A stretch of DNA of 54,940 bases from a phage, in assembly GCA_025829515.1 (NCBI GenBank), contig GCA_025829515.1_4865.2; one strand, 5' to 3'. The notes beneath the pieces were generated by a model. That model searched no databases, was not told the origin of the DNA, and saw only the letters and a list, made by a program, of their open reading frames with translations. The position numbers and the translations under genes are program-made. This document shows, piece by piece, positions 12,365 through 36,984 of this stretch. Position 1 is the stretch's first letter, and each line of letters opens with the position of its first letter.

Positions 12365-12380
12365 AGATAGATATTACCTA
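12365..12380 (+). promoter_or_regulatory. palindromic motif site A (agatagatattaccta, one mismatch to AGATAtTATCT core)
   Basis: Seven-member motif family; this copy is ~60 nt upstream of the 12439 start. Confidence 0.45.
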
Positions 12381-12438
12381 AGTGAGATGAGAAAGCCTCA
12401 TCTGAATTCCCCCAACTCGACTATAAAAGGTAAGCATC

Positions 12439-13386
12439 ATGTACAGACCAAGTAATCCTAGTGCTATTGAAGGATTAAACCAGGATGGCTTCAGCCTCGC
12501 AGAAGCAACCCGCATTCGACCTTTCTTACCTCGCAGATTCTTCCCTTTCGGTTCGTTATACAGAACGAATTTCGACGCCTGGGAAGCGATACGTGCTGTA
12601 AAAGATGCACTACAGTACAAGAACTTCGAATTCCGATTTGTTTTCAAATGGGTCAACGGCGAATTGCTCCACCACTTCGGATTCCAACAGAACGAGTTCA
12701 TTGAGTATACCTCACCTACGTACCACACCAGGTTCTTAAGTATCGAATTCGTTCGCCATTTCGGCGATGCACTCTTTACGGAACGGGCTACAGATGAAAA
12801 CCACGGACGTGGGCTGATGTTAACGAACGGCGCACTGCGCATCAAGATGAATCGTTTACGGGAAGCGTATAACCAGCTTATCAATCCTGAACCGGTAATG
12901 TTTCCAACTGTGGCTGATTTGAACATTACACCGCTCCAGTTACCTGTGGATGTGGATAGACCGATTCTGGCAATCCACGCTCTCCAGGCAGGCTATGCAA
13001 ACTGGTATAAAGAGCACAGTCTCCCGAACACCAGATTGAACATCGCACCGTTTGAGTTGTGCCTGTTCTTAACGTTACGCAAACAACTCGAGCCAGAAAA
13101 CTTAGACTTACGTTATCTGGCTAAAACAGATAGCGGTAGTTACTACCCAACGACCTGGATGCTGGCGGCTGTATTACCCGGCGGTGAAATTATCGGTAAC
13201 CCAGTCACCGATGTTCAACAGTTACCATCACCGTTAACACCACCGAAAGATTCAATCTATCCGTACGCTTCGTGGTACGCGAGCAGTATTGGCGTGAGAT
13301 GGTTAATGTTACACGTTCCTGAAGAGGTCTATAATTTATTCCCGCATGAGCAATGGCTCCGTGCGTATGAAAATCGGTTTGGTTAG
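12439..13386 (+). CDS. hypothetical protein
   Basis: 315-aa ORF downstream of terminator and motif site A. Confidence 0.6.
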   Translation: MYRPSNPSAIEGLNQDGFSLAEATRIRPFLPRRFFPFGSLYRTNFDAWEAIRAVKDALQYKNFEFRFVFKWVNGELLHHFGFQQNEFIEYTSPTYHTRFLSIEFVRHFGDALFTERATDENHGRGLMLTNGALRIKMNRLREAYNQLINPEPVMFPTVADLNITPLQLPVDVDRPILAIHALQAGYANWYKEHSLPNTRLNIAPFELCLFLTLRKQLEPENLDLRYLAKTDSGSYYPTTWMLAAVLPGGEIIGNPVTDVQQLPSPLTPPKDSIYPYASWYASSIGVRWLMLHVPEEVYNLFPHEQWLRAYENRFG

Positions 13387-13400
13387 TAGTCGATGCTTTT

Positions 13401-13436
13401 GAGGGAACTTCGGTTCCCTCTTTTTTTTTCTTTTTT
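13401..13436 (+). terminator. rho-independent terminator
   Basis: Stem gagggaac/gttccctc with UUCG loop and T-tract tttttttttcttttttcacg. Confidence 0.65.
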
Positions 13437-13460
13437 CACGACTGCCTCAGAATCTTATAG
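13421..13460 (+). promoter_or_regulatory. terminator-tail/promoter-like cassette (TTTTTTTTTCTTTTTTCACG-N12-TCTTATAG), copy 1
   Basis: Identical 20-mer plus TCTTATAG box also at 19421-19459; sits 13-33 nt upstream of the next gene start. Confidence 0.4.
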
Positions 13461-13472
13461 GAGGAAGTTACC

Positions 13473-13889
13473 ATGATTACGCAGTGCTACTACCAGACGC
13501 AAGATTTATTTAAAGCATTGGAAGAAAATAAGCTACCCACGACTTTAAGACCGCAGTGCAGTTATTCAAGAATGCTTGCAAGTGAGGTCTTTCCGGTGCT
13601 AATGCAGTTACCTCAATTCCAACCGTGGCTCGACTCGCTAGATGTGGTAGATGTTGTGGCTATCTACACTGGGTCAGACACACCAACAATAAATACAAGC
13701 GAGTGTTTATCCCGTAGCGAATCGTCGGCGATAAATGAAATGCCGCAGCTAATGCCTTCTTTATTCGATTCGATGTGCGCTGCAGTTATGCAGAAACGAC
13801 TACCTTATGAGGAAGTATTCGCCATTGTGTTAGACAGCATCCACGCAATGAATTATAAACACTATAAAACCCTCGGAACCTTACACTGA
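13473..13889 (+). CDS. hypothetical protein
   Basis: 138-aa ORF; AGGAGGA 8 nt upstream of ATG. Confidence 0.55.
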   Translation: MITQCYYQTQDLFKALEENKLPTTLRPQCSYSRMLASEVFPVLMQLPQFQPWLDSLDVVDVVAIYTGSDTPTINTSECLSRSESSAINEMPQLMPSLFDSMCAAVMQKRLPYEEVFAIVLDSIHAMNYKHYKTLGTLH

Positions 13890-13956
13890 CTTTTTTACGG
13901 CAGGCACCTATCTTGTAGGGAGTCTGTGCTGTAATAGATTCCAAAGGAGATGCTCG

Positions 13957-14346
13957 ATGAAAAACAAACTGCGTCCGCTGGACGTGATTATGGCGCATCC
14001 GGATACCCTCAAGAAAATTAAAGTGGTCAACGAACTTGACCGTGGTCTCCTGGATACTATTCAATGGGGTTTTACTTTCCACCCCGATGAAGAGAACAAC
14101 ACGCGTCAATTAGATGTCTGCGACGGCGTAGAAATCGATTGGTCTTCTAACGAAGGCTTTGATGATGTCGTCGATTATGTTAAACAAGCCACCGTTCCGC
14201 CTGTGTTCCCAGTAGCGGGTTTAGCGGAACACACAATTTCTCTCCGCCGACTGGTTAACGCTCAACCAGAAATCGTGCGTGAAGGTGAGGCGTGGACGTC
14301 AGGCATTACCCACCATCTTAAGGATGTGTTGGGTGTTGCCGGTTAA
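13957..14346 (+). CDS. hypothetical protein
   Basis: 129-aa ORF; AAGGAG RBS. Confidence 0.55.
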   Translation: MKNKLRPLDVIMAHPDTLKKIKVVNELDRGLLDTIQWGFTFHPDEENNTRQLDVCDGVEIDWSSNEGFDDVVDYVKQATVPPVFPVAGLAEHTISLRRLVNAQPEIVREGEAWTSGITHHLKDVLGVAG

Positions 14347-14356
14347 AAAAGAAGAA

Positions 14357-14398
14357 GTACCTCTACGCGAGTAGAGGTACGGAATCTTTCTTTTTTTG
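14357..14398. terminator. bidirectional rho-independent terminator
   Basis: Perfect 10-bp palindrome gtacctctac-gcga-gtagaggtac flanked by an A-run upstream and T-run downstream; lies between convergent genes. Confidence 0.65.
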
Positions 14399-15211
14399 TT
14401 ACGACTTGAAGCGTCCACCGTTCATGTAGTTCCAACGGTTTCCGATGTTGTCGTTGTGGACCAGGCAACGTTGCATTTTCGGCAAGGTGTCTTCGAACAT
14501 TTGACCGGCGTCCGAGTAACCTTCAATAACGTTTCTGAAGGCACCGAACTCCATACCATTTTCCAGTTTACCGGAATCCATGTCGAAGATCATGGTGTTG
14601 TAGATATATTGCTTAACAGCCATGACTGCCAGCTCACCTACAACCGGATAGAATGCTGGTTTGATTTCGTTCATCTCCTGGGACAGTTCGTACTTCACCA
14701 CGAGTTTGGTAGAGTAAACGAACATGCCTGGGTCTTTGATACGAATGGTATTCGGACCGAGCACTTCAACTTCTGGTGAGGCGATACGCGGCATCGCGGA
14801 TTGACTATCAACCACTTGTTGAGTGGACGCCAGTACGCCAGAGGTTGCACCGTCCAGATACGAACCCGCGGGTGGCATGGTGTACGCCTGTCCGGCAACA
14901 GGTGTTACAGAGATATGGGCGTCCAGAATTGGGCGACCACCTGTTTTGATGTCGTCGAGATAATACACGCGACTGAAATAATCTTGCGTGTCGTTATCCC
15001 AAGGAACACCTTGCAAATCTACTTCTTGATACTGCCCCATTCTGGAGATTTCAGGGACCAGAATTTCACGAATAACGCGTTGTTGAATTTCGTTATCTAC
15101 AGAGCTTGCAATTCCCAGTAACTTGAGGTTTTCTGGAACAAAAGCCGCCTGTAGAATCGGGGCAGGGATATGCTGTCTGATTTTACGCAGGCAGTAGTCG
15201 ATAACATTCAT
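14399..15211 (-). CDS. hypothetical protein
   Basis: ORF track extends to 15241 via a TTG; the in-frame ATG (plus 15209-15211) has AGGAG 7 nt upstream, giving MNVIDYCL... Confidence 0.6.
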   Translation of the reverse strand: MNVIDYCLRKIRQHIPAPILQAAFVPENLKLLGIASSVDNEIQQRVIREILVPEISRMGQYQEVDLQGVPWDNDTQDYFSRVYYLDDIKTGGRPILDAHISVTPVAGQAYTMPPAGSYLDGATSGVLASTQQVVDSQSAMPRIASPEVEVLGPNTIRIKDPGMFVYSTKLVVKYELSQEMNEIKPAFYPVVGELAVMAVKQYIYNTMIFDMDSGKLENGMEFGAFRNVIEGYSDAGQMFEDTLPKMQRCLVHNDNIGNRWNYMNGGRFKS

Positions 15212-15332
15212 TCTAAGGCTCCTATGAAGCTCGTAGGACAACTCATACCATCGGGTAATGGGATAGCATTACCTGACATTAAAATACGTTTTACGACCTT
15301 TATGTGCGCACCATACTCGAAGAAATTTTGCA

Positions 15333-15345
15333 TAGATATTATCTT
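15333..15345. promoter_or_regulatory. palindromic motif site B (perfect core AGATAtTATCT)
   Basis: Located in the divergent intergenic region between the minus gene starting at 15211 and the plus gene starting at 15375. Confidence 0.5.
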
Positions 15346-15374
15346 CGTGAATTATCCTTAAGGAGCATTTCTCG

Positions 15375-15695
15375 ATGACGCGCATGTTCTTTAATTTCTC
15401 TCCAGGGACAAATGAGCTGATTGTGCCTGCGGACATGTTACTGTGCGCGATACAAGAAGTTATTTATCCCGGCACGCATGAGTTTCCACGCGAGTGGACA
15501 CGCATTGCCGAAAGTTATTTTGGCACGGAAGCGTGGTTTGTTATTTCGGCGTTGGGCCGAAACCATAGCTATCCCTTTCATTACAAAAATGGAGTTGTGC
15601 AAACGTGGTCAGAATATACCTCGAACCAGCTGCGGTTCATTCTAGCTTCTGGGGGCCTGTCGATGCTTCCCAGTACGCTACCGCTCTGCGGATGA
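15375..15695 (+). CDS. hypothetical protein
   Basis: 106-aa ORF; AAGGAG RBS; first gene of a tightly coupled run of small genes. Confidence 0.5.
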   Translation: MTRMFFNFSPGTNELIVPADMLLCAIQEVIYPGTHEFPREWTRIAESYFGTEAWFVISALGRNHSYPFHYKNGVVQTWSEYTSNQLRFILASGGLSMLPSTLPLCG

Positions 15696-16255
15696 GCCAA
15701 AAAGAACGCGAGATGTTAACTGTACAACTGTTACACACTGCGCTCGAAGATATCTTTTACTCCGTTCCGGAAATGCCTAATGCACGTATGGAACCTTTGC
15801 TGGAACCTTATACTGACGCTTTTAATCTCACGATGATGTTGGTGGCTGACCAGATCATACTTCCACCGAAAACAGTTCCTGTGGAACGTACACACGTTTC
15901 CAGTGGCGGTTTGGGTACTCCGGTTAATAAGACGAAAGAGACCGTAGCGATTTTACGTTCTACCGAATATCTTATCGGATTAGCATTCGAAGACTGTTAC
16001 AACAGTTTCCTGGACAGTATCCATGCGCTTGTGGAGAATGCTGTGAAAGCCGCCAAACACCCGTTTAATCGTTATGCGACGATTAAACTGGAACCACACA
16101 TAACCCGTCGTGGGCAGGTGCAATCTCTGGAGTTACAAATTGGAGAAGACATCAGATTCATCCACTACCGCCAATGCTTCCCAAACAAACGATATCGTCC
16201 GTCTGGTACTGATCGATCACATTGCCTCGACGGCATACGTCAGGATATTGAATGA
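15692..16255 (+). CDS. hypothetical protein
   Basis: ORF track start 15605 overlaps the upstream gene by 90 nt; the in-frame ATG at 15692 forms an ATGA overlap with the upstream stop. Confidence 0.5.
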   Translation: MSQKEREMLTVQLLHTALEDIFYSVPEMPNARMEPLLEPYTDAFNLTMMLVADQIILPPKTVPVERTHVSSGGLGTPVNKTKETVAILRSTEYLIGLAFEDCYNSFLDSIHALVENAVKAAKHPFNRYATIKLEPHITRRGQVQSLELQIGEDIRFIHYRQCFPNKRYRPSGTDRSHCLDGIRQDIE

Positions 16256-16268
16256 CCCCAGCGACATC

Positions 16269-16577
16269 ATGTTCAGCATGTATGATGTTAACACGGGGTT
16301 GAAGCATATCATTCTCTGTATGCTCGAATACATGATTCCGACATTTACAGAACACGGTGCGTGGGACACAGAAACAGTCTCACTGATTGTTAGGTGTTAT
16401 CGTCCCAGAAGTCATTCGCGGGAAATCCACACCATCGCGTCACACGTTCATCGTGCTATCTGTGAGGAAATGGGCATTCCTCCGAAAGGGTATCGGTATC
16501 ATTATAATCAAGCAGACAGAATTCTCCGTTTCATTCCACGTAAGGTAACCGATGTCTATGATGACGGTTTATACTGA
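16269..16577 (+). CDS. hypothetical protein (start uncertain)
   Basis: ORF track start 16110 overlaps the upstream gene by 145 nt; first in-frame ATG after the upstream stop is 16269. Confidence 0.4.
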   Translation: MFSMYDVNTGLKHIILCMLEYMIPTFTEHGAWDTETVSLIVRCYRPRSHSREIHTIASHVHRAICEEMGIPPKGYRYHYNQADRILRFIPRKVTDVYDDGLY

Positions 16578-16959
16578 GTTCGTGCGATTGACTTGCCGAC
16601 TCACCGCACTCGTCAAAGAGAATCTCGGCATCGATTACCAGGATGCTGCGGTAGAGCTTGACGACTATATCGAGCAAATTGTTCGGTTGCATGTTCTGCG
16701 GAAAAAATATGGCGTTATCGATAGCATGATACGCCAGTTCTTTATGGAGTATGTTCACGATAACCCAATCATTACTCCAACCACGTCGGCAAAATACTGG
16801 GCTCTTTGTCGATTTGAGTTGTTGATACGGGACACCGATTGCATCTGGCAAGCAATCGACGAGGACATGACTTATTTACCACAATCCGACTTCCTCCTTT
16901 GGCATGTAGGAGATGGTGTCTGGAAAATGTTAACTACAGGGGTTACTTACAATGATTGA
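16552..16959 (+). CDS. hypothetical protein
   Basis: 135-aa ORF with short overlap to the upstream gene. Confidence 0.5.
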   Translation: MSMMTVYTEFVRLTCRLTALVKENLGIDYQDAAVELDDYIEQIVRLHVLRKKYGVIDSMIRQFFMEYVHDNPIITPTTSAKYWALCRFELLIRDTDCIWQAIDEDMTYLPQSDFLLWHVGDGVWKMLTTGVTYND

Positions 16960-17946: not shown

Positions 17947-18374
17947 AACTGTACATGACCATAGGCGAAGTCTTCAAATATGAGTCGTTGTTGGCACGGG
18001 CCGAGATTGCTGATACTAGCGAGATCGAGCCCGCTGTCGCTTATTTGTTTCTGGCCAGTTACGCCGAATTAACGGTACGTTCTATTGTTAATGGGCTAGG
18101 TAAGGGTAAGAACTTTCTTACTTTTATCCCCCCAGACCCTGCGTTGATACTGGAACAGTTGCGCGGGCTGTGGGGTACTGAAAAGGTGCTGCCTCTAAAC
18201 TGCTACAGCATGAGCAGTGGGATTAAGGATGATGTTCGGTTCTATGAAATCCTTTCCGTGATAGAACGTGTGTGGGGCATGGCTGGCTTGACTCCAGAAG
18301 ACGGAGCAAAAAAGACAAAGGTTTCACTCCTTATGAATGAAATTGGCAACGCACTCATCTGTGTTGAATGTTAA
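17943..18374 (+). CDS. hypothetical protein
   Basis: 143-aa ORF; ATGA start/stop overlap. Confidence 0.55.
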   Translation: MKLYMTIGEVFKYESLLARAEIADTSEIEPAVAYLFLASYAELTVRSIVNGLGKGKNFLTFIPPDPALILEQLRGLWGTEKVLPLNCYSMSSGIKDDVRFYEILSVIERVWGMAGLTPEDGAKKTKVSLLMNEIGNALICVEC

Positions 18375-18383
18375 GGAGTACGA

Positions 18384-19485: not shown

Positions 19486-21765
19486 GTGGACTACAATTCA
19501 CCATTTCGTCTTAGTCAAGACGAGTATCATCGCGACATTGACGTTATCGATGCGTACTACGAACAACTGGCGCTCTACATTCATACCGTCACCAACGGGA
19601 AATATTCTTTGGAGTTCTGTCGACAGCAGGTCGAAGAAATGTTCCAACCTGGTGGTGAGTTAGTACACGAATTTCCCGTGTGTAAGATGTGGGTGCGCAA
19701 TCAAAAGACCGGCGATCGCGAAGAAAAATACACCACGGTAGATAAACTGTTCCGTACAGTGATTGATAAGCAGATTATCTCTGCGCCGTCGCTGACCTTT
19801 TATCTGCCTGAGCACGTCAAGCGCTCTAAGCTTGCTGAATTTACCGCAGAGAACGTGCGTAAGCGTGCGGTTGTTAAGAAAGAGATGTACGCAGCAGGTG
19901 CTGCGGGTAATGAAGTTCTGCGTATTAACAAAAAGAACGAACAGAACGCTGTTAAGACGTTGAACAACGGGATGTCGGGTGCATTCTCATCACCGTACAC
20001 GGTAATCTTTAACCAGTCTTCGCACTCTGTATTGACGTCAACCTGCCGTACGGCTACATCGTTCGGTAACGCGGGTAACGAACGTCTACTGGGCGGTAAT
20101 CGTCACTACGACACGCCGTCCCGTGTTATCGACCACTTACTGTCTATTGGTACACTGACTAACTTTGCGGAGTTCAAGAAGTGTATGGAACTCTATAACC
20201 TCCACTACCCAACAGTGGACGAGGTTATGGAAGTGGTTATGTACTCTGCAGAGTTTTACTTCCGTAACGACGAAGGGCTGGAGTTCATTCGTCACTACGT
20301 CGGTAATTGTAGCCCGCTGGTACGTGCAGCGTTTGTCTACATGGGTGACTTCTACCACCTGGCGAAATACAACGATGAATTCATGCGCGGATTTATCGGT
20401 GCGCTGATTGCCGAGGAGATGGAAGACGAGATCACCGATTGGGATGCTGCTGAGCGCTCTATCGACGGTGACATGCAGATCATTATCTCGCAGTTCCGTA
20501 CTGATATCGTGCCGTTAGGTAAGTCGTTCTCTGACGTTAAACTCAAAGACGAAAACACGAACAAAGCGGAACCGTGGGATAAGCAGGAAAAATACAAAGA
20601 GCTGATTCGCTCAGCGGTGTATCTGCAGAAAACCATCGGTAAGTACGCGTGCTTGATTCGTAATATCCTGACTACCAAAAACCTGCCGATTAACATTGCC
20701 AGGATGCCTGACGTGGTTCGTCGTGTCGGTGTGGTATCTGATACCGACTCCACGATGATGACTGCACAGTGGTGGGCACAGTGGTATACCGGTCAACATT
20801 ACGGTCGTGAAGCTACGCGCGTATCGGATGCGATGATTTATATTGCAACCCAGCACTTACGTCATCTGATGGCGAGTATGTCGGCGAACATCGGTGTGGC
20901 GAAAGAGCGTCTGTTTTTGTACGCAATGAAGAACGAATTTAAGTTCGACTCCTTTGCGTTAACCACAAAAGCAAAACACTACTTCTCCATCATCACTGGC
21001 CAGGAAGGACAATTGAAGTCCGACCCTGAGTTAGAAGTTAAAGGTGTGTCTTTACGTACGTCGAACATACCGCCTGTGGTCATGAAAGAGTTCAAACGCA
21101 CGATTAAAGAACTCTGTGAGATTGTAGCGCGCGGCGATAAGATTAAGATTCTGCCTCTGCTGGAAAAGGTTGCTGCAATTGAGCACGTTGTGGTGGACTC
21201 TATTCGTGCTGGTAAAGCAGGCTACCTGAAAACAACCAACGTCAAAGACCGTAGTGCGTACTCTGAAGATGATGAAAAGAGCTACCACTACCACCGCATG
21301 TACAACGCCATCTTTGGACCGAAGTACGGCTACCTGGACGAACCGCCTTATGACGCCGTGAAACTTCCGGTAAACCTGGAGAACAAAACAGCCGTTAAAG
21401 AGTGGCTGGAAAACATTAAAGACCCGATGATTAAGACCACTGCAACACGGTGGTTCGAAGAGAACAACTATCGCACCTATCGTACTCTGATACTGCCAGA
21501 GTTCTTGGTGGAAAACTTCGGTATTCCTCCGGAGCTGATTGATGCTGCAGACACACGTCGAAGCGCATTCTCCACAGTAGAACCTTACTATCACATCCTG
21601 GAATGTCTGGGTGTCTTCATGATGGACAAGAACAGAACTCGTCTGCTTTCGGATTACTACGGCGAGTCCGTAGACTCGGTCAAGGAAGAATTAGGTAGCG
21701 GCGAGTACGTTAAGAAATCTGAACGTGATGGAGAGGAAGAGGATGGGGAAGAAGCGGAGGAGTAA
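19486..21765 (+). CDS. large hypothetical protein (759 aa) with weak DNA-polymerase-like motifs
   Basis: GTG start with AAGGGG RBS; contains KTLNNGMSGAF (resembles family-B motif KxxxNSxYG) and VVSDTDS (resembles YGDTDS); acidic C-terminus; assignment not verified. Confidence 0.55.
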   Translation: MDYNSPFRLSQDEYHRDIDVIDAYYEQLALYIHTVTNGKYSLEFCRQQVEEMFQPGGELVHEFPVCKMWVRNQKTGDREEKYTTVDKLFRTVIDKQIISAPSLTFYLPEHVKRSKLAEFTAENVRKRAVVKKEMYAAGAAGNEVLRINKKNEQNAVKTLNNGMSGAFSSPYTVIFNQSSHSVLTSTCRTATSFGNAGNERLLGGNRHYDTPSRVIDHLLSIGTLTNFAEFKKCMELYNLHYPTVDEVMEVVMYSAEFYFRNDEGLEFIRHYVGNCSPLVRAAFVYMGDFYHLAKYNDEFMRGFIGALIAEEMEDEITDWDAAERSIDGDMQIIISQFRTDIVPLGKSFSDVKLKDENTNKAEPWDKQEKYKELIRSAVYLQKTIGKYACLIRNILTTKNLPINIARMPDVVRRVGVVSDTDSTMMTAQWWAQWYTGQHYGREATRVSDAMIYIATQHLRHLMASMSANIGVAKERLFLYAMKNEFKFDSFALTTKAKHYFSIITGQEGQLKSDPELEVKGVSLRTSNIPPVVMKEFKRTIKELCEIVARGDKIKILPLLEKVAAIEHVVVDSIRAGKAGYLKTTNVKDRSAYSEDDEKSYHYHRMYNAIFGPKYGYLDEPPYDAVKLPVNLENKTAVKEWLENIKDPMIKTTATRWFEENNYRTYRTLILPEFLVENFGIPPELIDAADTRRSAFSTVEPYYHILECLGVFMMDKNRTRLLSDYYGESVDSVKEELGSGEYVKKSERDGEEEDGEEAEE

Positions 21766-23189: not shown

Positions 23190-23241
23190 GGCAGACTCCT
23201 TAGATTCCACATAGGAAGTCAGTCACAGTCAAAAATATCTC

Positions 23242-23256
23242 AGATTGATATTATCT
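23242..23256. promoter_or_regulatory. palindromic motif site C (cagattgatattatct, one mismatch)
   Basis: About 55 nt upstream of the minus-strand gene start at 23189, in a divergent intergenic region. Confidence 0.45.
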
Positions 23257-23337
23257 ATGTGACAGTTCCTGAGAAATGTCTGGACTATGTGCCTTGTAAG
23301 TAAGCGACGGCGTACTTGCATTCCATGAAATTACAGG

Positions 23338-23350
23338 CAGATATTATCTC
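23338..23350 (+). promoter_or_regulatory. palindromic motif site D (perfect core AGATAtTATCT)
   Basis: About 50 nt upstream of the highly codon-optimised 617-aa gene. Confidence 0.5.
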
Positions 23351-23395
23351 TGCGAACCGAACTATGATTGCAATCACTATTAAGGAATATTTAAA

Positions 23396-25249
23396 ATGGT
23401 AAAAATCGTTGACTCTAACAACAACGCTCAGCAGAACAACACTCAGACTCAAGACACCGCACCACTGGGCGGTCTGGGCAACGAGACTGTAAAAGTGCAA
23501 ACTGCTGTGCCGGGTACTTCTACTGTCAGCCAATTCGATAACGCATTTGGCATCCGCAACATCAGCACCTATGCAATGCACTTCGTCAACCTCCTGGACG
23601 AGCTGAAGAAAAGCAACGAATACCTCAACGCATTCCGCTGGGGCACCATCGCTGGCGTGGGTAACGAAATGGGTTCCGCGGCGTATGTCGCAGGCCAATG
23701 GCAGGGCCACTGGCTGTATGGTATCATCTTCTTTGAACGCGGTCAGTCTCTGCGTCTGAAAGAAACTACCAACAACGGCCAGGAAGACTACTACACCATC
23801 ACTGAACTGTTCAACAAAGACGTGCTGGCAGTAGTACAGAAAAACATCATGGAAGCGCATGGTCTGACCAATGCGAACTTCATGATCATCAACTCCGTAC
23901 CAGACCTGGGTAAAGTTCTGGATGCTGAGTGGGCACGTACTCTGATGGGTCAGATGATGATGGGCATCTTCGGTCGTATCGCAGGCTACCTGGGTACGCT
24001 GAACCTGCGTAAGCATGACCGTTATCAGGCTGCAGTAATGCCGCTGGAAGATGGTGCGGTTGTGGATGCTAACGGCCACGCACAACGTGCTGATTTCGCA
24101 ATCACCGTTGAGCACAGCCCAAGCAACGTATCCGACGCCACTCCGACTCTGCTGGACACCAATCAGGTACAGGTGTATCCGCGTGTATCCGGTACTGGTT
24201 TCGTCAACATGCGTTTCACCGGTCAGAAGCCTGTCGTTAACGGCGTCTACGACCTGAAACAGCTGCAGGCTGAAATCGTAGTAAGTCTGGTCGATTCTCA
24301 AACTGAAGGTGCAATGGCACCGTATGAACGTCAACTGCTGCTGCTGGCTGCATTTGCAGAAATCGCGGCAATCGGTGGCTGGCGTGACCTGTTTGTGAAA
24401 CGTCTGAACAAACAAGATCGCAAGTTCTCCCGTGTGGCAGAATACCTGTCCTGGGGTGCTGACGCTCGTCCTGATGTATCCAAAATCGACGGTAGCCGTG
24501 AAGCTATCGAAGGTTGCCTGGATATGTTCGCACCGCGTGAAGCAGCACTGGTAGTTAGCCATCGTGCCGGTAACGGTCTGGGTGGTCTGTCTACTATGCT
24601 GTCTGAAATTGCGGTCGGTTACGACAACTCTCTGAAACAGCTGCTCGCTATTCTGAATTCCATGTCCCCGCGTGATCAGAACGGCGAAGTTGTTGCAGCG
24701 ACCAGCTTCACTGCAGTATTTGCTTCTGCACTGAAAGCACAGCTGGGCGATGCCTTCAATGGTACCATCCATTGCAGCCACATCGTGAAAGCAGCCGTAC
24801 CGACTGTTTCCGGTGTTTACACCGGTACTGCACAGAAACGTAGCTTCCAGGATATGGACCTGATTTCCGTTGTTACCAAACTGGGTGATAACGCGAACGA
24901 CGTCTATAGCTACCTGAACGCACAGTCCTACAGCCACCGTGAACTGAACGAGCGTCAACAGCGTATCTACATGCTGAAACTGGCCGCTTCTCTGTTCGCA
25001 TCCAAAGCACCGCAAGCTACCGGTGAATCTCTGGATATGGCTATCAACCCGATCTTCGGTAAATGCCTGCTGGACTTCGTCCGTAACAACTGCACCTGGT
25101 CTATGACTGGTGTAAATGCCTACAACACGATGGCGACCTCTCTGTTCTTCAACAACGGTGGGGAAGACTTCACGCTGTCTGGCAACGGCCTGTCTGCAAG
25201 CGGTTCCGATTTCGGTCTGGGCGTGTCTCTGAGCAACTTCAAACTGTAA
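23396..25249 (+). CDS. abundant 617-aa protein; candidate phage-nucleus shell protein (chimallin-like) by synteny, alternatively a major structural protein
   Basis: Strongly biased codon usage (ctg, cgt, ggt, aaa) implies very high expression; AAGGA RBS; lies immediately upstream of the RNAP beta' N gene, as chimallin does in phiKZ; no sequence-level confirmation. Confidence 0.6.
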   Translation: MVKIVDSNNNAQQNNTQTQDTAPLGGLGNETVKVQTAVPGTSTVSQFDNAFGIRNISTYAMHFVNLLDELKKSNEYLNAFRWGTIAGVGNEMGSAAYVAGQWQGHWLYGIIFFERGQSLRLKETTNNGQEDYYTITELFNKDVLAVVQKNIMEAHGLTNANFMIINSVPDLGKVLDAEWARTLMGQMMMGIFGRIAGYLGTLNLRKHDRYQAAVMPLEDGAVVDANGHAQRADFAITVEHSPSNVSDATPTLLDTNQVQVYPRVSGTGFVNMRFTGQKPVVNGVYDLKQLQAEIVVSLVDSQTEGAMAPYERQLLLLAAFAEIAAIGGWRDLFVKRLNKQDRKFSRVAEYLSWGADARPDVSKIDGSREAIEGCLDMFAPREAALVVSHRAGNGLGGLSTMLSEIAVGYDNSLKQLLAILNSMSPRDQNGEVVAATSFTAVFASALKAQLGDAFNGTIHCSHIVKAAVPTVSGVYTGTAQKRSFQDMDLISVVTKLGDNANDVYSYLNAQSYSHRELNERQQRIYMLKLAASLFASKAPQATGESLDMAINPIFGKCLLDFVRNNCTWSMTGVNAYNTMATSLFFNNGGEDFTLSGNGLSASGSDFGLGVSLSNFKL

Positions 25250-25331: not shown

Positions 25332-27283
25332 GTGAGAAAGGTACCAAAATTCTACGGAATATCCGGCCGGTTGGTTAGTCAGGATAACTATTTGTCCGAT
25401 TTGCAAATAGAAGCTGCAGCCAAAGGTATTAAACCACCCACTATTATTAACGATGTCGCCGTTAACGGGGATGCTATCGAGGTTGCTGAACTTATCGATC
25501 GCATGGTACAGAACAGAATCGTTGACGAAGAACTGAACTCTGCACCGATTTGTAGTTTGGATTGTCCGGCACCGATCGCGCATCGTTACAATCTCGGTTG
25601 TAAGTGTCCGACGTGTGGCTATGTTGTAACTGAACATCGAATTGAATCCGATGTCTGGTTACGTGCACCCGATGAAATGGGTAACTTCGTCAACCCACGA
25701 TTCTGGGCAATGTTCAATGCTTTCTTTAATAGCAAGTTGAAGAAGTTTGAACGTAACAAGGTCACTATCGAACGCGGTAATGACTTGATGATGTGGATGA
25801 TTGACCCGTATTACCGTATAGAAGAACCAGACGGTAAACGCGCACATGCTGTGAAACGTGTATTGGAAGAACATGGTTTCGTTCGTGGCTTGCGCAATCT
25901 GGTTGATAACCACGTTAGTATCTTTAACATCCTTACCACGCCAGAAGCCTGGAAGGAAATCTTCGCACCTAATCGGCATAACGCCGCTGAAGGTGAACGC
26001 TTACGTTTACAATGGAAGGAGCTATTCGAAACGCAACGTCACGCATTCTTCCCAAGACACTTACCGCTAATCTCCTCTAAACTTATCGTTACTGAGGAAG
26101 GTCGTCGTGGTGTCATGGTAGACCCAGTGTTCACGGGTGCTATTGATGCGGTGAAAAATATCGCGTTGCTCTATACGCGGCGTAAAGCGATCGAACCACG
26201 TTTTCTGATTAGTCGTGCTTTGAAGGCGAACCGTCAGCTAACGTACTTCCACATGGACTTCCGTCGTGAGTCTATGGAAGGTAAACCGGGTGACTATCGT
26301 GCGAAATTGGGTTCTACCCATATCCCGTTCGGTGGTCGTGCAACCATCTCACCTATCTCAGAACCACATGATGCCTGGAAGTTAAAAGCACCATGGCGTT
26401 GGATGGTTGGGTTGATGTCGACCCACATCGAGAACAAACTGCTACGACGCGGTTATTCGTCACGGCAGTGTGAACGTATCGTTGCGAAAGCGGCAATGCA
26501 GTATGACCCGCTTGTAGATGAAATCTTTAAAGAACTGATTCGTGAATCCCCAGGCGGTCTTGGGATCATGGTCATACCGTTACGTAACCCAACGCTGGTA
26601 CAGTTGTCTATTCAAACGCTGTACATCGATGAAGTTGTTACCGATGTTAACCAGTGTTCGCTGCGTATCTCTGACCGTGTGATCAAGATGGCTAACGGTT
26701 CGAAAAGAGCCCCATCGGACGGGAAACCTCTGATGCGTATTCTCCTGAAATGCTGGGAAACCCTAAAGCGTATCTACCAGAAATGGGGACGAAAGTCTGA
26801 AACAACAGATACGATGACCTACGCTAAACAATACTGCTAACGGTTGTGATAATGGGTAATCAGCAGCGAAGCCTCGTGAGAGGAACGTTCAACGACTATC
26901 GCTGAAATGCGAGTAGGGGTCCCAGTGGACTTCGAAGTGGGAGAACACCTAAGGCGATAGCTATGGTGAAGATATAGTCTGTGCCTTATCGAGAGATAAG
27001 GAGGGTGTCTTAGCACACCTGCTGTATACGGAAACGGTATACGGTGGACAAACAGGATTTCGATGGCGACCAGTTCCAGGTACGTTTGCCAGTCGATGAA
27101 ACTGAGATGAAGTTGGCGCTCCAATTCCGTCCAGATAACGGCTTTATGTCTTCTACTGATGTGGACCGCGTAGAACACGGCATGGTTTTACATAACGAGC
27201 TAATCAGTATGCAGAACCAGTTCCTTATTGAAGCAGATGAGGATGATGAAGAAGGCATTCCGTTGGAAGCGGTGATGGGCTAA
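25332..27283 (+). CDS. multisubunit RNA polymerase beta'-like N-terminal fragment, interrupted by a group I intron (exon 1 ~25332..26662, exon 2 ~27037..27283)
   Basis: Exon 1 has a beta'-type zinc ribbon (CSLDCPAPIAHRYNLGCKCPTCG), FRRESMEGK...GGRATISPISEP and IPLRNPTLVQLSIQ (cf. E. coli NRAPTLHRLGIQ); downstream frame encodes DFDGDQFQVRLPVDETEMKLALQF (cf. [26 protein letters not shown]); the two parts are in different frames ~370 nt apart and the second has no RBS. Confidence 0.65.
26663..27036 (+). ncRNA. putative ORF-less group I intron (boundaries +/- ~10 nt)
   Basis: Core elements in canonical order: P-like ggacgggaaa (26717-26727), Q-like aatcagcagcgaagcc (26858-26873), R-like gttcaacgactat (26887-26899), and aagatatagtc (26969-26979) identical to the Tetrahymena intron S element; gactat and atagtc can form P7; a U-ended exon 1 and G-ended intron restore the frame. 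Confidence 0.55.
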
Positions 27284-31723: not shown

Positions 31724-31804
31724 GAAACAAAATAAAAAATACGCCCAAGGGAAACCTTGGGCTATTAACGCTTATGCGTGGTCCTGCAACACACACTGTA
31801 AGAA

Positions 31805-31824
31805 GATTTAGATAGATATTATCT
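31805..31824 (+). promoter_or_regulatory. palindromic motif site E (gatttagatagatattatct)
   Basis: Perfect core; 20-mer identical to site F; ~40 nt upstream of the 31859 start. Confidence 0.5.
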
Positions 31825-31858
31825 CAGTGCAATCGACTATTCGCGGAGTTCAACTATA

Positions 31859-33493
31859 ATGAAAATTATGAAGATTAAAGACCGGATGACAATCGAGCAT
31901 CATGGTCAAGAGGTCACATTTATTGGCTTACGTTATCGGAAGGATAACAACGCACCCGACTACATCACTGTTAAAGGTAAACAGATTGCACGCGACAACA
32001 TTCTCTTCATGGAATTACAACGCGTGTGGGATTATTTAACGCCAGACGAACAAGATGAACTGTTCATGGCGTATCTGATGCTGGACGAGCTGGCAAACGA
32101 ATCGACGGAAACGCAGCGTAAGCACATGCCGAAGATTGTGCAGACGATTGCGAAGTTCCACAAGGCCGAAGTGTATCGTAAGCTGTATCCCATCGATAAG
32201 CTGTGGATTCCGCAGAACATGGAAGATACGCACGATGAAATGAACAGTAATTATCCGGAAGCGATGACGTACATTCGTCCGGACTATTACGAGTTGTTGA
32301 TACTGGTCCTGATGATTAAACCGTATATTCCGGTGTTCCTCACCATGGGGACGTTCCCGATAGGTAAGAACTTGCCAATCGAAACACATCGGAAAATGGT
32401 GTACAATCTGACATACTGTCTGGAGATGCTTCAAGACACAGAAGTCATGTCTTTACCTGCTATTCCGAAACTGCGTGGATTCCTACAGACAGTGATGGAA
32501 AAGGTAGAAAAAGAACTGGCAAACAAAGGTACGAACAGCACCAGTTTGTCGGTACTAGCTACGGTGCGGGGCTATGGCACGGATATGATGGAAGATTATA
32601 TCCTGGCGTATGCTATTATTAAATTGTTGGCTGTCCGTGAAGTCGGTGGTGAATTACCGGTTGAAATCATGGTTAACAACAATATCGTCACCGGCATGTA
32701 TTTTCTGGTTAAACAAGAGATTGAAACAGGTTTTGCAAACAAAATCTCTAACCAGCCGGTGCTGTTAAAAGCGCATCCGGAAAGTGTGGTATTCAATGGC
32801 GAAAAGGGTAAGATAAACGCCATGGATTTGGTGCAGGCACGTTCTCCTGCACAGATGAAAGAATACGTCCGTACCGAGTACGTATTTAAAGAATACCGCT
32901 CTTTCTTGAAAACAATGCGTCTGGATAATGCCGCTCCAGCAGATGTTAAGTTATTGATTGATTCGCAACTGGCAACACACGACGGTCCTGTCTATACGTT
33001 GCACGAATGGTTAGTCGCATTAGCACTCCATCGTAGCGTGCATTATAAGACGTATACTGAATGTGGACCAGAAGCGTTTCGCTACGGTATGGCATTGGCG
33101 CAGGCAACTTATCTCAATTATGGAATGTATGACGTTGCGCAACTGTTAAGTTGCAATATGGTGCGTTCTGAGATGTCTGCCGGCTATGCAGCCGACCCAA
33201 TTCGATCTGAACTCAAAGCAGATTTAGATAGATATTATCTTCAGGAGTATCGCAACCCGCGTAATCTCGAACCGCAATCTACACCACGGGAATCACTGAC
33301 CTTGTTACACAAGGATCACATCAACCCGTATCTGTTCCATCTCAGGGCTACACCAGAAGCAGCTGCGCTGCTGAAGTGTGAGACGGATCAGCCAAACTAT
33401 ATACCTCACTTGTCACTGCACAATAGCCTGGCGGAGTTTATGGTGTTGAATGCACGTCGCAAGTTAGAAGAAGTTGAATGGTTTAATTCTTAA
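31859..33493 (+). CDS. hypothetical protein
   Basis: 544-aa ORF downstream of motif site E. Confidence 0.6.
   Translation: MKIMKIKDRMTIEHHGQEVTFIGLRYRKDNNAPDYITVKGKQIARDNILFMELQRVWDYLTPDEQDELFMAYLMLDELANESTETQRKHMPKIVQTIAKFHKAEVYRKLYPIDKLWIPQNMEDTHDEMNSNYPEAMTYIRPDYYELLILVLMIKPYIPVFLTMGTFPIGKNLPIETHRKMVYNLTYCLEMLQDTEVMSLPAIPKLRGFLQTVMEKVEKELANKGTNSTSLSVLATVRGYGTDMMEDYILAYAIIKLLAVREVGGELPVEIMVNNNIVTGMYFLVKQEIETGFANKISNQPVLLKAHPESVVFNGEKGKINAMDLVQARSPAQMKEYVRTEYVFKEYRSFLKTMRLDNAAPADVKLLIDSQLATHDGPVYTLHEWLVALALHRSVHYKTYTECGPEAFRYGMALAQATYLNYGMYDVAQLLSCNMVRSEMSAGYAADPIRSELKADLDRYYLQEYRNPRNLEPQSTPRESLTLLHKDHINPYLFHLRATPEAAALLKCETDQPNYIPHLSLHNSLAEFMVLNARRKLEEVEWFNS
33221..33240 (+). promoter_or_regulatory. 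palindromic motif site F, embedded in the 3' part of CDS 31859..33493
   Basis: Exact 20-mer gatttagatagatattatct, here encoding DLDRYYL; ~270 nt upstream of the 33506 start. Confidence 0.4.
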
Positions 33494-33505
33494 GGAGTAT
33501 TTAAA

Positions 33506-35206
33506 ATGCAGCTTGTAAATCTACTGATGTATCCGGTCTACGATGTTCCAGAGCAAGTTCGTCGCCGCATCGGCTTTAACGCATCTACGGGTGCGCTGGA
33601 TGACTTAGCAGCAGCGGTTGAACTGGGCGGGGAAAAAGCTGTGGGGACACAGCAGTATCAAGAAGCGTTATCTGCCATCGTGGGCTTCGATGGCACCCAG
33701 AATGGTTTTGAGCGTCCATTCATCAACGTGTCCGATGATGACAATCGTCCTGTACAGTTCCAATGGGAATCACGTGATACCGGTATCTTTAACTTCGTGG
33801 CGGTGTTTATTGCTAAACCTCTGAATGCAACACGCACTCAGGAAACGCAATACATCGTCTCCGGTTATACCAGTCAGGCAGAAACCAGCCTGGGTAGCCT
33901 GCTGCCGGACGATATGGTGTTGTACATTAACGACATCTACGGCTTACAGGCAACGTATACACACGATGCCCTGGGCGGCAAAACATTGAACCCAGACTCA
34001 TTCCGTCTACTGGATAACTACGTTTTATCGAAAGCGCTGTCTGTTGAAGGTCAAACAGAAAGTACGGTAGATATCATTTCGATCGCGAAAGCAGCGGACA
34101 TGGTAAAACGTATTGAAATGAATAGCGGTGAGAAGTTCGTCCCAACGAGCGACTCTGTGCTATCCGCAACCAGTAGCTCTGCACCACAGTTGATGGTATC
34201 CCAACTCCAGCGTCCAGAAAACTACGTATCTGCCATCAGTAATGCGTATCTGGCAAGCTCTGGGGTAGATACCGAACTCGGTAGCGTGGAAAGCTTCTTT
34301 GCAGGTAATAACTCCATCGGCGTTGAATCTGAATTGAAGCAACGTGGTGTTATCCGTAACTACAGCAACCACGAACTGATTGCTGCGATGCGTCAAGCAC
34401 TCCAGAACGGGATGTCTGATGTATCTGGCGGCTGGAAAGCAACCAGTAAGGCGACGTTCCGTTTGGCTGATTTGCGTAATGCGATTGTCAACCCAATGCG
34501 GTTGGATGAATGTATCCGTGAATCGCTGGCGCTGGCAAGTCGCCGTGGGTTGGGTGCAGGGCTGGTTAACCAAACCGACCACTGGATTGGACGTAATGGC
34601 TTCTCCACGCAGGGTAGTCTAGTTGCGTATGATCTGGCTATGTCTATCGGGCCGATTATGTCACGTAACCTGATTGGTGAAGTGAGCTTTGTCTTTGATA
34701 ACCGCAACACAGATATCATGATAGAGCCTACGCTGGAAGTTATTCCTAACTCAGTCAGCAGCATCACGCACCATCAGTTACCTGCTGCGTTAGGTCGTCG
34801 TTTCTTGCAGAACATGAAAGAAGCGATGGTTCAGGTTACTAAACATAACCATATTCGCTGCCACATGCTGGTCACCGCATTGTTGGGGACCGTTACTCGT
34901 ATTGAAATCCGTGTCGACGACGAACCGCTGGAATATTACACCTACGCGTCGTTTATGCAATTCCGTCTTCATACCGGCAACACCACCGATCTCAAATACG
35001 TTGGTGAGCTGGCACAGAACACCGCAACGCTGTTGAAAGCCGTGGAAGAAGGTTATACAGAATTCGAGAAAGGCCAAGGCCGGGGTCGAATGCTATCTAA
35101 CATTCCAACTAACACAGGTGGCTTAGATCCTCTCGGAGGTCTTGACCTGGGTGGTGGCTTAGGCGGTATAGGCGGAAACGGACTCGGCAACGGTCTCATT
35201 GATTAA
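33506..35206 (+). CDS. hypothetical protein with Gly/Leu-rich C-terminal tail
   Basis: 566-aa ORF; AAGGAG RBS; C-terminus GGLDPLGGLDLGGGLGGIGGNGLGNGLID. Confidence 0.6.
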   Translation: MQLVNLLMYPVYDVPEQVRRRIGFNASTGALDDLAAAVELGGEKAVGTQQYQEALSAIVGFDGTQNGFERPFINVSDDDNRPVQFQWESRDTGIFNFVAVFIAKPLNATRTQETQYIVSGYTSQAETSLGSLLPDDMVLYINDIYGLQATYTHDALGGKTLNPDSFRLLDNYVLSKALSVEGQTESTVDIISIAKAADMVKRIEMNSGEKFVPTSDSVLSATSSSAPQLMVSQLQRPENYVSAISNAYLASSGVDTELGSVESFFAGNNSIGVESELKQRGVIRNYSNHELIAAMRQALQNGMSDVSGGWKATSKATFRLADLRNAIVNPMRLDECIRESLALASRRGLGAGLVNQTDHWIGRNGFSTQGSLVAYDLAMSIGPIMSRNLIGEVSFVFDNRNTDIMIEPTLEVIPNSVSSITHHQLPAALGRRFLQNMKEAMVQVTKHNHIRCHMLVTALLGTVTRIEIRVDDEPLEYYTYASFMQFRLHTGNTTDLKYVGELAQNTATLLKAVEEGYTEFEKGQGRGRMLSNIPTNTGGLDPLGGLDLGGGLGGIGGNGLGNGLID

Positions 35207-35218
35207 GGATTATTAACC

Positions 35219-36586
35219 ATGAAATTGATTGAATTCTACCGTTCGTTTCTGACCTCGCTCGGATACGGATTCGAAGGTGACATGCTGACTATCGATGATG
35301 GTCATCCGGCAATGTTCACCTACAACAAAGTGAAGCGCCGCTTGGTGCTTCCAACTGCAGCGATGATTAAGCGTGGGTTGGAAGATGACGAAGGTAGTGA
35401 ATGTCATGCGTTCCACCCACTGTGTGAATCGGTACTGGCTGGCGAATCTGGAACGATTCGTTTCCTGAAGAAAGCCATCAACGCGAACCTCTTCCTGAAA
35501 AGCTTCGAGTTAATCGATGCGATTTTGGAAACAGCAGCCGAAGGAAAAAATATCCGTCTGGCAGCGTACAAGAAGTTTTTAAGCGATGTGGTTTGTGCTG
35601 ACCTGAAAGATCCAACGATGGATAAGAAACTGGTTCAGAGCTGGCACGCAGTGAAGAACTACGTTTACGGGTTGCTGGAAGAAGATAAAAAGACAAAGAT
35701 CACCAGTATCTTCATCTCCAGCGATATGACCATTGAAGGTATCAAATATATCCGTGTGGCGAACTACAAACACATGTTTGAAGAAGAGTCACTGGATGGT
35801 ACGGCAACATTCTTCGGTGCCAAGCTCCAGCGTAAGCAGGATAAGGTCATTATCTTTAACCTGCTAACTGCAGTGTTTGGTTGGTATCCTTCGGTTACGG
35901 GTTCTAACGATCCGCGTCCGTACTTCGGTTCTTTGGCACGCGGTTGGGCACAATACGTGACCAACTACAATCAAGTGGTTCGTGGTCTGCGTGACCACAC
36001 TCCACTGCGTCCGTTAGAAGAAGAATGGATTGGCCAACTGGATAACATGAGCGTTTATGATAACGTTATCCAAACTCTGCCGTATAATACCGGCCCACGC
36101 ACCGATCAGGCAACAGACACCACCGCAACGGATTTCCGTATCGGGCGTACACCTGCCGGCACAAAGCCGGTCGTTGCTTTAGCTTCTCAACAAGCTCCGC
36201 AGGAAAATCTTGATCTCAACGATCCGGTAAACTATTTCCGTGCGAAGAAAGCGCAACAGGCGTCTTCAGCTAATAGCTTCAATGCGTTAGCACCGAAGAT
36301 TCAGGAAGCGCTGCGTGAGAACAACGGCCATTTACCGAAAGGGACAATTAAAGAACTGTCTCTCGGTGAAGCGCTGCGTGGTAATGCGGTGACGAAAGAA
36401 AGTGGTCTGGGTTCTGGTTTGCTGGGAAGTAGTAATAATCTCTTGGGGGGTAGCACGCAGTTGGGCGGCGGTAGCACCAACCTCTTAGGAGGGAGTAGTG
36501 ACGTGTTAGGTGGTCTGGGTGGTTTAGGTGGCGGAAGTAGCAGCAGTTTAGGCAACCTACCATTCTCATCAGCTAATTTACGTTAA
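35219..36586 (+). CDS. hypothetical protein with Gly/Ser/Leu-rich C-terminal tail
   Basis: 455-aa ORF; AAGGA RBS; C-terminal ~70 aa of LLGG/SGLG repeats. Confidence 0.6.
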   Translation: MKLIEFYRSFLTSLGYGFEGDMLTIDDGHPAMFTYNKVKRRLVLPTAAMIKRGLEDDEGSECHAFHPLCESVLAGESGTIRFLKKAINANLFLKSFELIDAILETAAEGKNIRLAAYKKFLSDVVCADLKDPTMDKKLVQSWHAVKNYVYGLLEEDKKTKITSIFISSDMTIEGIKYIRVANYKHMFEEESLDGTATFFGAKLQRKQDKVIIFNLLTAVFGWYPSVTGSNDPRPYFGSLARGWAQYVTNYNQVVRGLRDHTPLRPLEEEWIGQLDNMSVYDNVIQTLPYNTGPRTDQATDTTATDFRIGRTPAGTKPVVALASQQAPQENLDLNDPVNYFRAKKAQQASSANSFNALAPKIQEALRENNGHLPKGTIKELSLGEALRGNAVTKESGLGSGLLGSSNNLLGGSTQLGGGSTNLLGGSSDVLGGLGGLGGGSSSSLGNLPFSSANLR

Positions 36587-36596
36587 GCGTTAGAAA

Positions 36597-36626
36597 GAAG
36601 GGACTGGGCGTCCCTTCTTTTTTTCA
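36597..36626. terminator. bidirectional rho-independent terminator
   Basis: Stem aagggac/gtccctt flanked by an A-rich stretch upstream and T-run downstream; between convergent genes. Confidence 0.6.
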
Positions 36627-36947
36627 AGATTCTACGATAGTCGATAAGATGTTACTTACCACACCGACACTAGGAACCAATAAGGTTCTTATCTCTGGCG
36701 TGAAATCAAACGGAGTAGAAATTCCGTTCATTAACATCATCGGATAAATAATACTATTATCGTACTGTTTGAGACGACAGTACGCGTAGAAACTGTGTAC
36801 CTCTGGGTAGGCATATTTTGGGTCAACAACTTCTTCTGTAGTATCTGGGTGTTTGCGAAGGAAGTCTGTATAGTCATGCAACACCTTATACTTGGTCGAA
36901 TCAGGCGAAGGTATTATTTCGGATAAGGTAGCAAATTTATCTAGCAT
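36624..36947 (-). CDS. hypothetical protein
   Basis: 107-aa ORF; ATG (plus 36945-36947) preceded by AAGGAGA on the minus strand. Confidence 0.55.
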   Translation of the reverse strand: MLDKFATLSEIIPSPDSTKYKVLHDYTDFLRKHPDTTEEVVDPKYAYPEVHSFYAYCRLKQYDNSIIYPMMLMNGISTPFDFTPEIRTLLVPSVGVVSNILSTIVES

Positions 36948-36967
36948 CGTCTCTCCTTAAAATAAAA

Positions 36968-36984
36968 CAGATAGATATTATCTT
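36968..36984. promoter_or_regulatory. palindromic motif site G (cagatagatattatctt)
   Basis: Perfect core in the divergent intergenic region between 36624..36947 (minus) and 37014 (plus). Confidence 0.5.

Follow-up and report, generated by a model that had tools for sequence, protein, structure and literature searches.

Nucleus-forming jumbo phages related to phiKZ, SPN3US among them, pack a multisubunit RNA polymerase (RNAP) in the virion and encode a second, non-virion RNAP (PMC7598289, PMC5105663, PMC13282480). In phiKZ, the injected virion RNAP uses the early promoters independently of the host RNAP and of protein synthesis (PMC7598289, PMC8244752). These promoters number 28-32, are AT-rich and centred near -10, and carry a T-rich stretch upstream (PMC7598289, PMC8244752, PMC10914365), the counts being those of Ceyssens et al. 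2014 and Wicke et al. 2021 as cited in PMC7598289 and PMC8244752. Bioinformatic searches can recover a motif of this kind from every jumbo phage that encodes an RNAP (PMC7598289). The present analysis concerns a stretch of phage DNA of 54,940 nucleotides (contig GCA_025829515.1_4865.2, hereafter the window), in which a preliminary description had reported a recurring palindromic 11-mer, AGATATTATCT. The copies of this 11-mer are very probably the -10-like cores of early promoters of about 35 nt, belonging to an SPN3US-like nucleus-forming jumbo phage and read by its injected virion RNAP.

A similar situation has been described for the Bacillus phage AR9, where an over-represented AT-rich motif near -10 before early operons was predicted bioinformatically first, confirmed by differential RNA sequencing (dRNA-seq) and primer extension, and assigned to the virion RNAP (PMC5312081, PMC7598289). 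By description, AR9 differs in its consensus, in its uracil-containing genome and in forming no nucleus. Long conserved phage-specific promoter words, repeated in the genome and read by a phage polymerase, are also a feature of T7-type phages and of N4, and the N4 enzyme is injected as well; however, the enzymes of both are single-subunit, and the N4 virion RNAP reads a DNA hairpin. The present phage differs from them in having a split β/β' multisubunit enzyme and conserved promoter positions that require no hairpin.

The window shows about 97% identity, and 95-98% over the aligned blocks, to the Salmonella jumbo phage SPN3US (NC_027402; Seoulvirus, Chimalliviridae), with respect to which it is permuted: positions 1-7039 correspond to SPN3US 233376-240413, and the remainder to SPN3US 1-46482. 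SPN3US encodes one virion and one non-virion multisubunit RNAP, the virion set consisting of gp240/gp241/gp218/gp42/gp244 (PMC5105663). Two split β/β' RNAP subunit sets are evident from the annotation, from PHROG and Pfam, and from BLASTP to PHIKZ055/068/071/073/074.

The seven copies of the 11-mer are present at the positions reported for them: AGATATTATCT is exact at 15334, 23339, 31814, 33230 and 36973, and one mismatch each is found at 12369 (AGATATTACCT) and 23246 (TGATATTATCT), with the central T on the + strand in all seven. That such recurrence lies beyond chance also holds, as exact matches to AGATANTATCT number five against 0.04 expected from dinucleotide-preserving shuffles, one-mismatch strand-hits number 12 against 0.5, and neither count was reached in any of 100 shuffles. 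The extension to cAGATAGATATTATCT, on the cAGATA side, is real. An eighth, degenerate copy at 4810-4820 (ATATGTTATCA), upstream of the open reading frame (ORF) 4854-5987, had been overlooked, and so had an asymmetric conservation that covers about 20 nt on the 5' side of the 11-mer and 6 nt on its 3' side.

A scan of the full genome for the motif had been proposed as a check, and it was run on SPN3US with a position weight matrix (PWM) built from the sites and iterated over the whole 240-kb genome. The PWM finds 23 sites in SPN3US, all on the + strand and with scores of 31.8-48.5, and eight sites in the window. The next best score in SPN3US, 17.3, belongs to the reverse strand of a true site, and the sites score 31-49 in the forward against 11-17 in the reverse direction. 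The 11-mer lies in the middle of a longer, asymmetric element, some 35 nt in all and composed of an invariant A, an A/T tract, tTCAGATA, (G/T)ATATTA(T/C), four bases and GTG-A. Over 55 sites, 23 in SPN3US and 32 in its relatives, the consensus reads a.Tc.AaaaaatttcaGATAgATaTTATCtt.gtGA, and six positions are invariant, namely an A 15 nt 5' of the core, A-T-n-T-n-A within the core and a G at core+14. When this G is taken as +1, the invariant A falls near -29, the A/T tract at about -28 to -22, tTCAGATA at -22 to -15 (with its CAGATA block at -20 to -15) and (G/T)ATATTA(T/C) at -14 to -7, followed by four weakly constrained bases and (G)T-G(+1)-A. Its core is a conserved AT-rich word of some 10 nt that belongs to the TATATTAC type, and a T/A-rich stretch precedes it. 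An extended 11-1-11 palindrome (TCA...TGA) was also considered and dropped, its mirror columns 31-33 being nearly unconstrained. The eight elements of the window are as follows.

4791..4828, + strand: element 1, CCTCTAAAAATTTACGGATATATGTTATCATACTGAGA; core 4810-4820; PWM score 38.3; predicted start G 4825, 29 nt before ORF 4854-5987; divergent with the minus-strand ORF 3405-4781.
12350..12387, + strand: element 2; core 12369-12379 (AGATATTACCT); PWM score 49.3; predicted start G 12384, 55 nt before ORF 12439-13386.
15315..15352, + strand: element 3; core 15334-15344; PWM score 40.6; predicted start G 15349, 26 nt before ORF 15375-15695.
23227..23264, + strand: element 4, distal member of a tandem pair; core 23246-23256 (TGATATTATCT); PWM score 42.8; predicted start G 23261, 135 nt before ORF 23396.
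23320..23357, + strand: element 5, proximal member of the pair; core 23339-23349; PWM score 36.2; predicted start G 23354, 42 nt before ORF 23396.
31795..31832, + strand: element 6; core 31814-31824; PWM score 40.4; predicted start G 31829, 30 nt before ORF 31859-33493.
33211..33248, + strand: element 7, in the 3' part of ORF 31859-33493; core 33230-33240; PWM score 38.7; predicted start G 33245, 261 nt before ORF 33506-35206 (PHIKZ069/Imp1 position, by synteny).
36954..36991, + strand: element 8; core 36973-36983; PWM score 33.6; predicted start G 36988, 26 nt before ORF 37014.

The published early-promoter consensus of phiKZ, tatattaaaaaaaatttaagatgtatattacaaatgtg, comes from an engineering study (PMC12676376 Table S1). 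Anchored on the core, it is identical to the SPN3US consensus at 25 of 35 positions with no gap. The eight window sites match it at 16-25 of 35 positions, the best being element 4 (25/35), as compared to 9.0 ± 2.6 for random window positions (maximum 19 in 20,000 trials). When a PWM was made from ten phiKZ sites alone, its top nine SPN3US matches were members of the present family in the same register. The two kinds of site share the A/T tract, TTT-(A/C/G)AGAT-N, (T/G)ATATTA(C/T), N4 and (G/T)TG in the same register, and both are co-oriented with the genes downstream and followed by short leaders; the number per genome is similar (23 in SPN3US against 28-32), and so is the location before the orthologous chimallin/gp54 and non-virion RNAP gp68 genes. 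Within the first 100 kb of phiKZ, PHIKZ054 (chimallin) and PHIKZ068 are among the genes preceded by TATATTAC sites in this context, the one for PHIKZ068 being at 57984. In the 33 kb of 201phi2-1 (Serwervirus) that were compared, TTTGAGATTTATATTAC-N4-GTG stands before gp124 (gp68-like) and gp128/129 (non-virion RNAP β), which are orthologues of the genes behind window elements 6 and 8, although the core there is of the phiKZ type (TATATTAC). The differences from phiKZ lie in the host and genus (a Pseudomonas Phikzvirus as against an enterobacterial Seoulvirus), in the core, which is TATATTAC there and dominantly GATATTATCT here, giving an accidental 5-1-5 dyad, and in the stronger conservation of the CAGATA block here; moreover, the early promoters of phiKZ have been mapped, whereas those described here are predicted from the sequence. 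The consensus match, the recovery of the sites by the phiKZ-derived PWM and the orthologous placement in phiKZ and 201phi2-1 together argue that the element is the Seoulvirus version of the phiKZ-type early promoter.

Conservation was followed over the syntenic 41-43 kb of STsAS, Asesino, Caitlin, Kwan, CR5 and Phobos, which represent five genera and whose non-virion RNAP gene regions show 66-80% DNA identity to the window. Each of the five window sites between 23 and 37 kb has an orthologous counterpart in all six relatives, always on the coding strand. The flanks diverge, with a mean column identity of 69% and 76% in the alignments of two intergenic regions, and the invariant columns of both alignments cluster in the element, the Shine-Dalgarno sequences and the start codons. 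The intragenic element 7 occupies the same place in all seven genomes, where it overlaps a D-R/I-Y-Y peptide. In CR5 and Phobos, a codon of this stretch is changed from AGA to ATA with alteration of the amino acid, which is exactly the G-to-T swap that the promoter family tolerates; even so, constraint at the DNA level and at the protein level cannot be fully separated at this element. A scan of IMG/VR viral contigs for CAGATAGATATTATC returned at least 120 stretches with one match each, chance-like apart from three contigs, and is uninformative because the matches look like chance 15-mers in a very large collection.

By annotation, 21 of the 23 SPN3US sites are fully intergenic, one lies over the last codons of a gene and one is intragenic; every site has a + strand gene downstream, and several come after T-runs. 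Counted from the invariant G, the leaders measure 26-135 nt for 22 sites and 261 nt for the intragenic one. The motif is present in tens of co-oriented copies, shortly 5' of operons that include the non-virion RNAP genes. The window agrees with the earlier account in that six of the seven copies are intergenic, the exception being 33230 within ORF 31859-33493, and in that three intergenic regions (15334; 23246/23339; 36973) are divergent. The spacing of 35-60 nt given for most copies stands roughly for five of them, in which the end of the 11-mer is 31-60 nt from the next + strand ATG, but not for those at 23246 and 33230, in which it is 140 and 266 nt. Element 3 precedes ORF 15375-15695, the first gene of a co-directional cluster that reaches the DNA polymerase gene 19486-21765. 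Genes behind the elements, and a hairpin that ends the unit upstream of element 2, are listed below.

23396..25249, + strand: SPN3US gp22 homologue of 617 aa, at the PHIKZ054 position, directly 5' of the PHIKZ055 homologue.
25332..27283, + strand: non-virion RNAP β'-N gene, PHIKZ055 homologue (BLASTP E = 2e-41; PHROG 'RNA polymerase beta subunit').
31859..33493, + strand: PHIKZ068 homologue, non-virion RNAP fifth subunit (BLASTP E = 9e-13).
37014-39251, + strand: non-virion RNAP β gene, PHIKZ073 and PHIKZ071 homologue (BLASTP E = 3e-19 and 2e-12; Pfam/PHROG RNAP domains).
39251-41356, + strand: non-virion RNAP β'-C gene, PHIKZ074 homologue (BLASTP E = 1e-41; Pfam/PHROG RNAP domains).
12306..12329, + strand: strong hairpin resembling an intrinsic terminator, of 10 bp with a TTCG loop and a T-rich tail, about 20 nt before element 2.

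In phiKZ, gp68 is the fifth subunit of the non-virion RNAP and is required for promoter recognition (PMC13282480). The remaining β(-N) fragment of the non-virion RNAP is gp77 in SPN3US (PMC5105663), and a tandem pair of sites lies upstream of gp76-gp77. Since a polymerase cannot make its own first copy, the non-virion RNAP genes need a pre-existing enzyme. The PWM scan finds no site before the structural and virion-RNAP genes at window 37-55 kb.

The product of ORF 23396-25249 is probably the nuclear-shell protein chimallin, judging from its position and from a weak hhalign profile match to PHIKZ054 (E = 0.022 over 130 columns). BLASTP against PHIKZ054 gave nothing significant, no match was obtained with PDB sequences (using the protein and a 7-sequence profile) or with NCBIfam and Pfam, and all cluster members and phage records are named 'hypothetical protein'.

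We infer that the virion RNAP is the reader of these elements, that their timing is early and that transcription starts at the invariant G. The multisubunit enzyme, packaged in the head and injected with the DNA, would recognise the sites straight after injection and without the host RNA polymerase. It would initiate at the invariant G and transcribe rightward into short 5' leaders carrying Shine-Dalgarno sequences. The units switched on in the window would include, besides four non-virion RNAP subunit genes and the probable shell gene, the Imp1-position gene and the cluster ending in the DNA polymerase, after which the non-virion RNAP would handle middle and late transcription.

At 9-10 of the 23 SPN3US sites, the first or second nucleotide of the predicted transcript opens a hairpin of 5 bp or more, as compared to 9.9% of random positions, and the frequency is highest for starts at +14 to +16 from the first core base. 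Stem-loops in the predicted transcripts are found at SPN3US 92545 and 161924, beside six cassette sites described below, and the predicted transcript of window element 2 opens with a 7-bp hairpin within 12384-12403. A start at the core+14 G fits, indirectly, both the invariance of this base (55/55 sites) and the onset of the hairpin, and a 5' stem-loop could protect the 5' ends of the early mRNA. The leaders also carry a motif, (A)ATCGAC(T/C)AT(TA), at window 12417-12424 and 31833-31840 and in about 11 SPN3US leaders; it is found 12-20 nt 5' of the Shine-Dalgarno sequence of several genes, whether or not these have an early promoter.

The preliminary description had left the choice between a promoter specific to the phage and a site bound by a dimeric regulator. 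The former is well supported by the position of the sites, their strict co-orientation with the genes downstream, their conservation across genera and their agreement in register with the phiKZ early-promoter consensus, whereas the latter rests on the 5-1-5 dyad, which is not the conserved part. An operator, through which a dimeric phage or host regulator would control the neighbouring genes, including both genes of divergent pairs, could account for the perfect 5-1-5 dyads of five window copies, for the three divergent intergenic regions and for the symmetry of element 4, which reaches about 11-1-11 and is broken once (TCAGATTGATA-T-TATCTATGTGA), and SPN3US encodes at least one helix-turn-helix (HTH) protein. 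However, the complete dyad, with complementarity in each of its five pairs, is restricted to 10 of the 23 SPN3US sites and 4 of the 32 in relatives. The outer right position (column 30) is T9/A8/C10/G5 in the relatives while its mirror, column 20, is A in 28/32, and the changes are uncompensated, G21 being replaced by T with C29 kept and T28 by C with A22 kept. The information is likewise asymmetric, with 1.5-1.7 bits in columns 17-19 against 0.1-0.8 bits in the mirror columns 31-33, and the invariant A and the A/T tract are one-sided. All 55 sites lie on the strand of the downstream gene and reverse-strand scores do not exceed 17.3, so that the orientation independence of an operator is not seen, and the mapped early promoter type of phiKZ is the same element without the dyad. 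As the dyad is unconserved, its changes uncompensated and its information asymmetric, it is best regarded as a by-product of the -10-like word of Seoulvirus, and an operator is extremely improbable.

Two further explanations keep the promoter and change the enzyme. The hexamer TATTAT shares five of its six positions with TATAAT, the A at the second and the T at the sixth among them, and the upstream A/T tract could serve as an UP element, which would suit host sigma-70 promoters read by Salmonella RNA polymerase at the onset of infection. A sigma-70 consensus scan nevertheless called none of the eight sites, and the region has no excess of such promoters (19 against 24.8 ± 4.5 and 25 against 24.4 ± 4.9 in shuffles). 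The PWM columns hold no conserved -35-like hexamer 16-18 nt upstream, six or seven SPN3US sites, those of a second class (see below) among them, have TATTAC, which lacks the T at -7, and orthologous sites of CR5 and Phobos read TTTTAT or TGTTAT, without the A at -11. More is conserved than sigma-70 reads, namely CAGATA, the A at -29 and the G at +1, and phiKZ development is independent of the host RNAP (PMC7598289); recognition by the host enzyme can hardly be credited. Reading by the non-virion RNAP, which would make the sites promoters of a middle or late class, is very unlikely, although both enzymes are phage-encoded, nothing measured here separates which of them reads the motif, an early promoter and a middle one both serve gene 54 in phiKZ (PMC8244752), and tandem or extra sites occur at two window genes. 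The motif fits the phiKZ early consensus and neither the middle signal (TACT/AT-rich, -22 to -24) nor the late one (TATG at the start) (PMC7598289, PMC8244752). The subunit genes of the non-virion RNAP themselves lie behind the motif, needing another enzyme first, and the motif is absent before the structural and virion RNAP genes.

Several points weigh against early promoters read by the virion RNAP. In the more distant relative Ea35-70, the motif is missing at the two orthologous places that were compared, before the gp68-like and the non-virion RNAP β genes. The ten phiKZ sites of the PWM were chosen by the analyst from the TATATTAC word and an intergenic context rather than from a published list, and with this PWM only the best site in the window alone (20.2) scores above the best shuffle (15.3). 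For the chimallin label of ORF 23396-25249, the support consists of synteny and a weak profile match. Neither the 5' ends nor the timing of transcripts from SPN3US or another Seoulvirus could be found in the searchable literature. Recognition by the virion RNAP has been deduced indirectly even for phiKZ, as no virion RNAP from this phage group had been purified as of 2017 (PMC5312081).

The sites fall into two classes. Class 1, GATATTATCT, is dyad-looking and is the sole class in the window, while class 2, TATATTACYTAGGTGAGA, comprises six SPN3US sites, all outside the window. On this division, the dyad class would serve the conserved core early operons (those with the nuclear-shell gene, the complete non-virion RNAP set, the Imp1-position gene and the DNA polymerase cluster), and the phiKZ-like class 2, with a hairpin at +1 and a fixed leader, would serve small accessory genes. 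The class 2 sites, at SPN3US 56299, 65418, 94244, 113991, 165692 and 223282, are six near-identical cassettes before small genes, one of them HTH-encoding, in the order TATATTACYTAGGTGAGA, hairpin starting at +1, AATCGACTATTA and Shine-Dalgarno sequence. From their sequences, they resemble duplicated or mobile promoter-leader modules. The T4-type 'PeSL' cassettes likewise combine an early promoter with a stem-loop, the promoters being of the host sigma-70 type, and the six SPN3US promoter-hairpin-leader cassettes before small genes are similar in this respect. It is conceivable, but doubtful, that the two classes represent kinetic or strength tiers of virion-RNAP transcription (e.g. immediate from the injection vesicle versus delayed-early), class 2 possibly being a mobile promoter-leader cassette. 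In a weaker variant, the dyad cores in divergent intergenic regions could fire both ways.

Some further observations concern the genes behind the elements and the window as a whole. A group I intron (26680-27001, + strand; Rfam RF00028, 69.4 bits, E = 1.3e-15) interrupts the PHIKZ055 homologue that begins at 25332. A stretch of about 360 bp is absent from SPN3US at this place, where nothing corresponds to window 26692-27056, but is present in other strains, and the intron is therefore polymorphic among Seoulvirus strains. At SPN3US 72491-72738, a Shine-Dalgarno sequence and an ATG at about 72541 lie 3' of the first promoter of a tandem pair, which points to a short ORF, missing from the annotation, in the interval from the major head gene to gp76. 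The exact proteins of 23396-25249, 31859-33493 and 33506-35206 occur on 193, 46 and 603 contigs, respectively; contigs with these identical proteins are of about 240 kb and belong to assemblies of Salmonella enterica and E. coli isolates, well over a hundred in all, which points to frequent sequencing of the phage together with its hosts. Rfam places three tRNA genes on the + strand, at 9436-9508, 10866-10935 and 10938-11009, the third barely over the family threshold (30.6 vs 29 bits), and the SPN3US record has two (tRNA-Trp and tRNA-OTHER). At about 7200-7310, close to SPN3US record coordinates 100-210, there are some 110 bp of nearly pure A/T with an inverted repeat, AATAATACC-TTT-AGGTATTAT, inside, bordered by GC-rich ACGCGTGCGCG-type repeats and GATC sites; an origin, or a site related to packaging, may lie here.

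The kind of element is already known as the phiKZ-type early promoter, and the present one is its Seoulvirus instance, ordinary but real. A full-text search, outside which Lavysh 2016 and Ceyssens 2014 fell, returned no phage paper giving GATATTATCT or TATATTAC. The least ordinary features of the element, as they appear from the sequence, would be the conservation of register across genera, the conserved intragenic promoter in the gp68-like gene and the two discrete classes, one of them a promoter-hairpin-leader cassette. The promoter finding does not overturn current understanding. It provides a testable promoter map for the SPN3US group, a genetic model of giant phages, with eight window and 23 SPN3US sites and their predicted start nucleotides, and it narrows the positions that the virion RNAP must read to the A at -29, the A-T-n-T-n-A core and the G at +1. 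The consensus could become a portable early promoter for engineering these phages, as has been done in phiKZ. The finding further shows that an early-promoter architecture has been kept in register, before the same genes, from the Pseudomonas phages phiKZ and 201phi2-1 to the enterobacterial Chimalliviridae.

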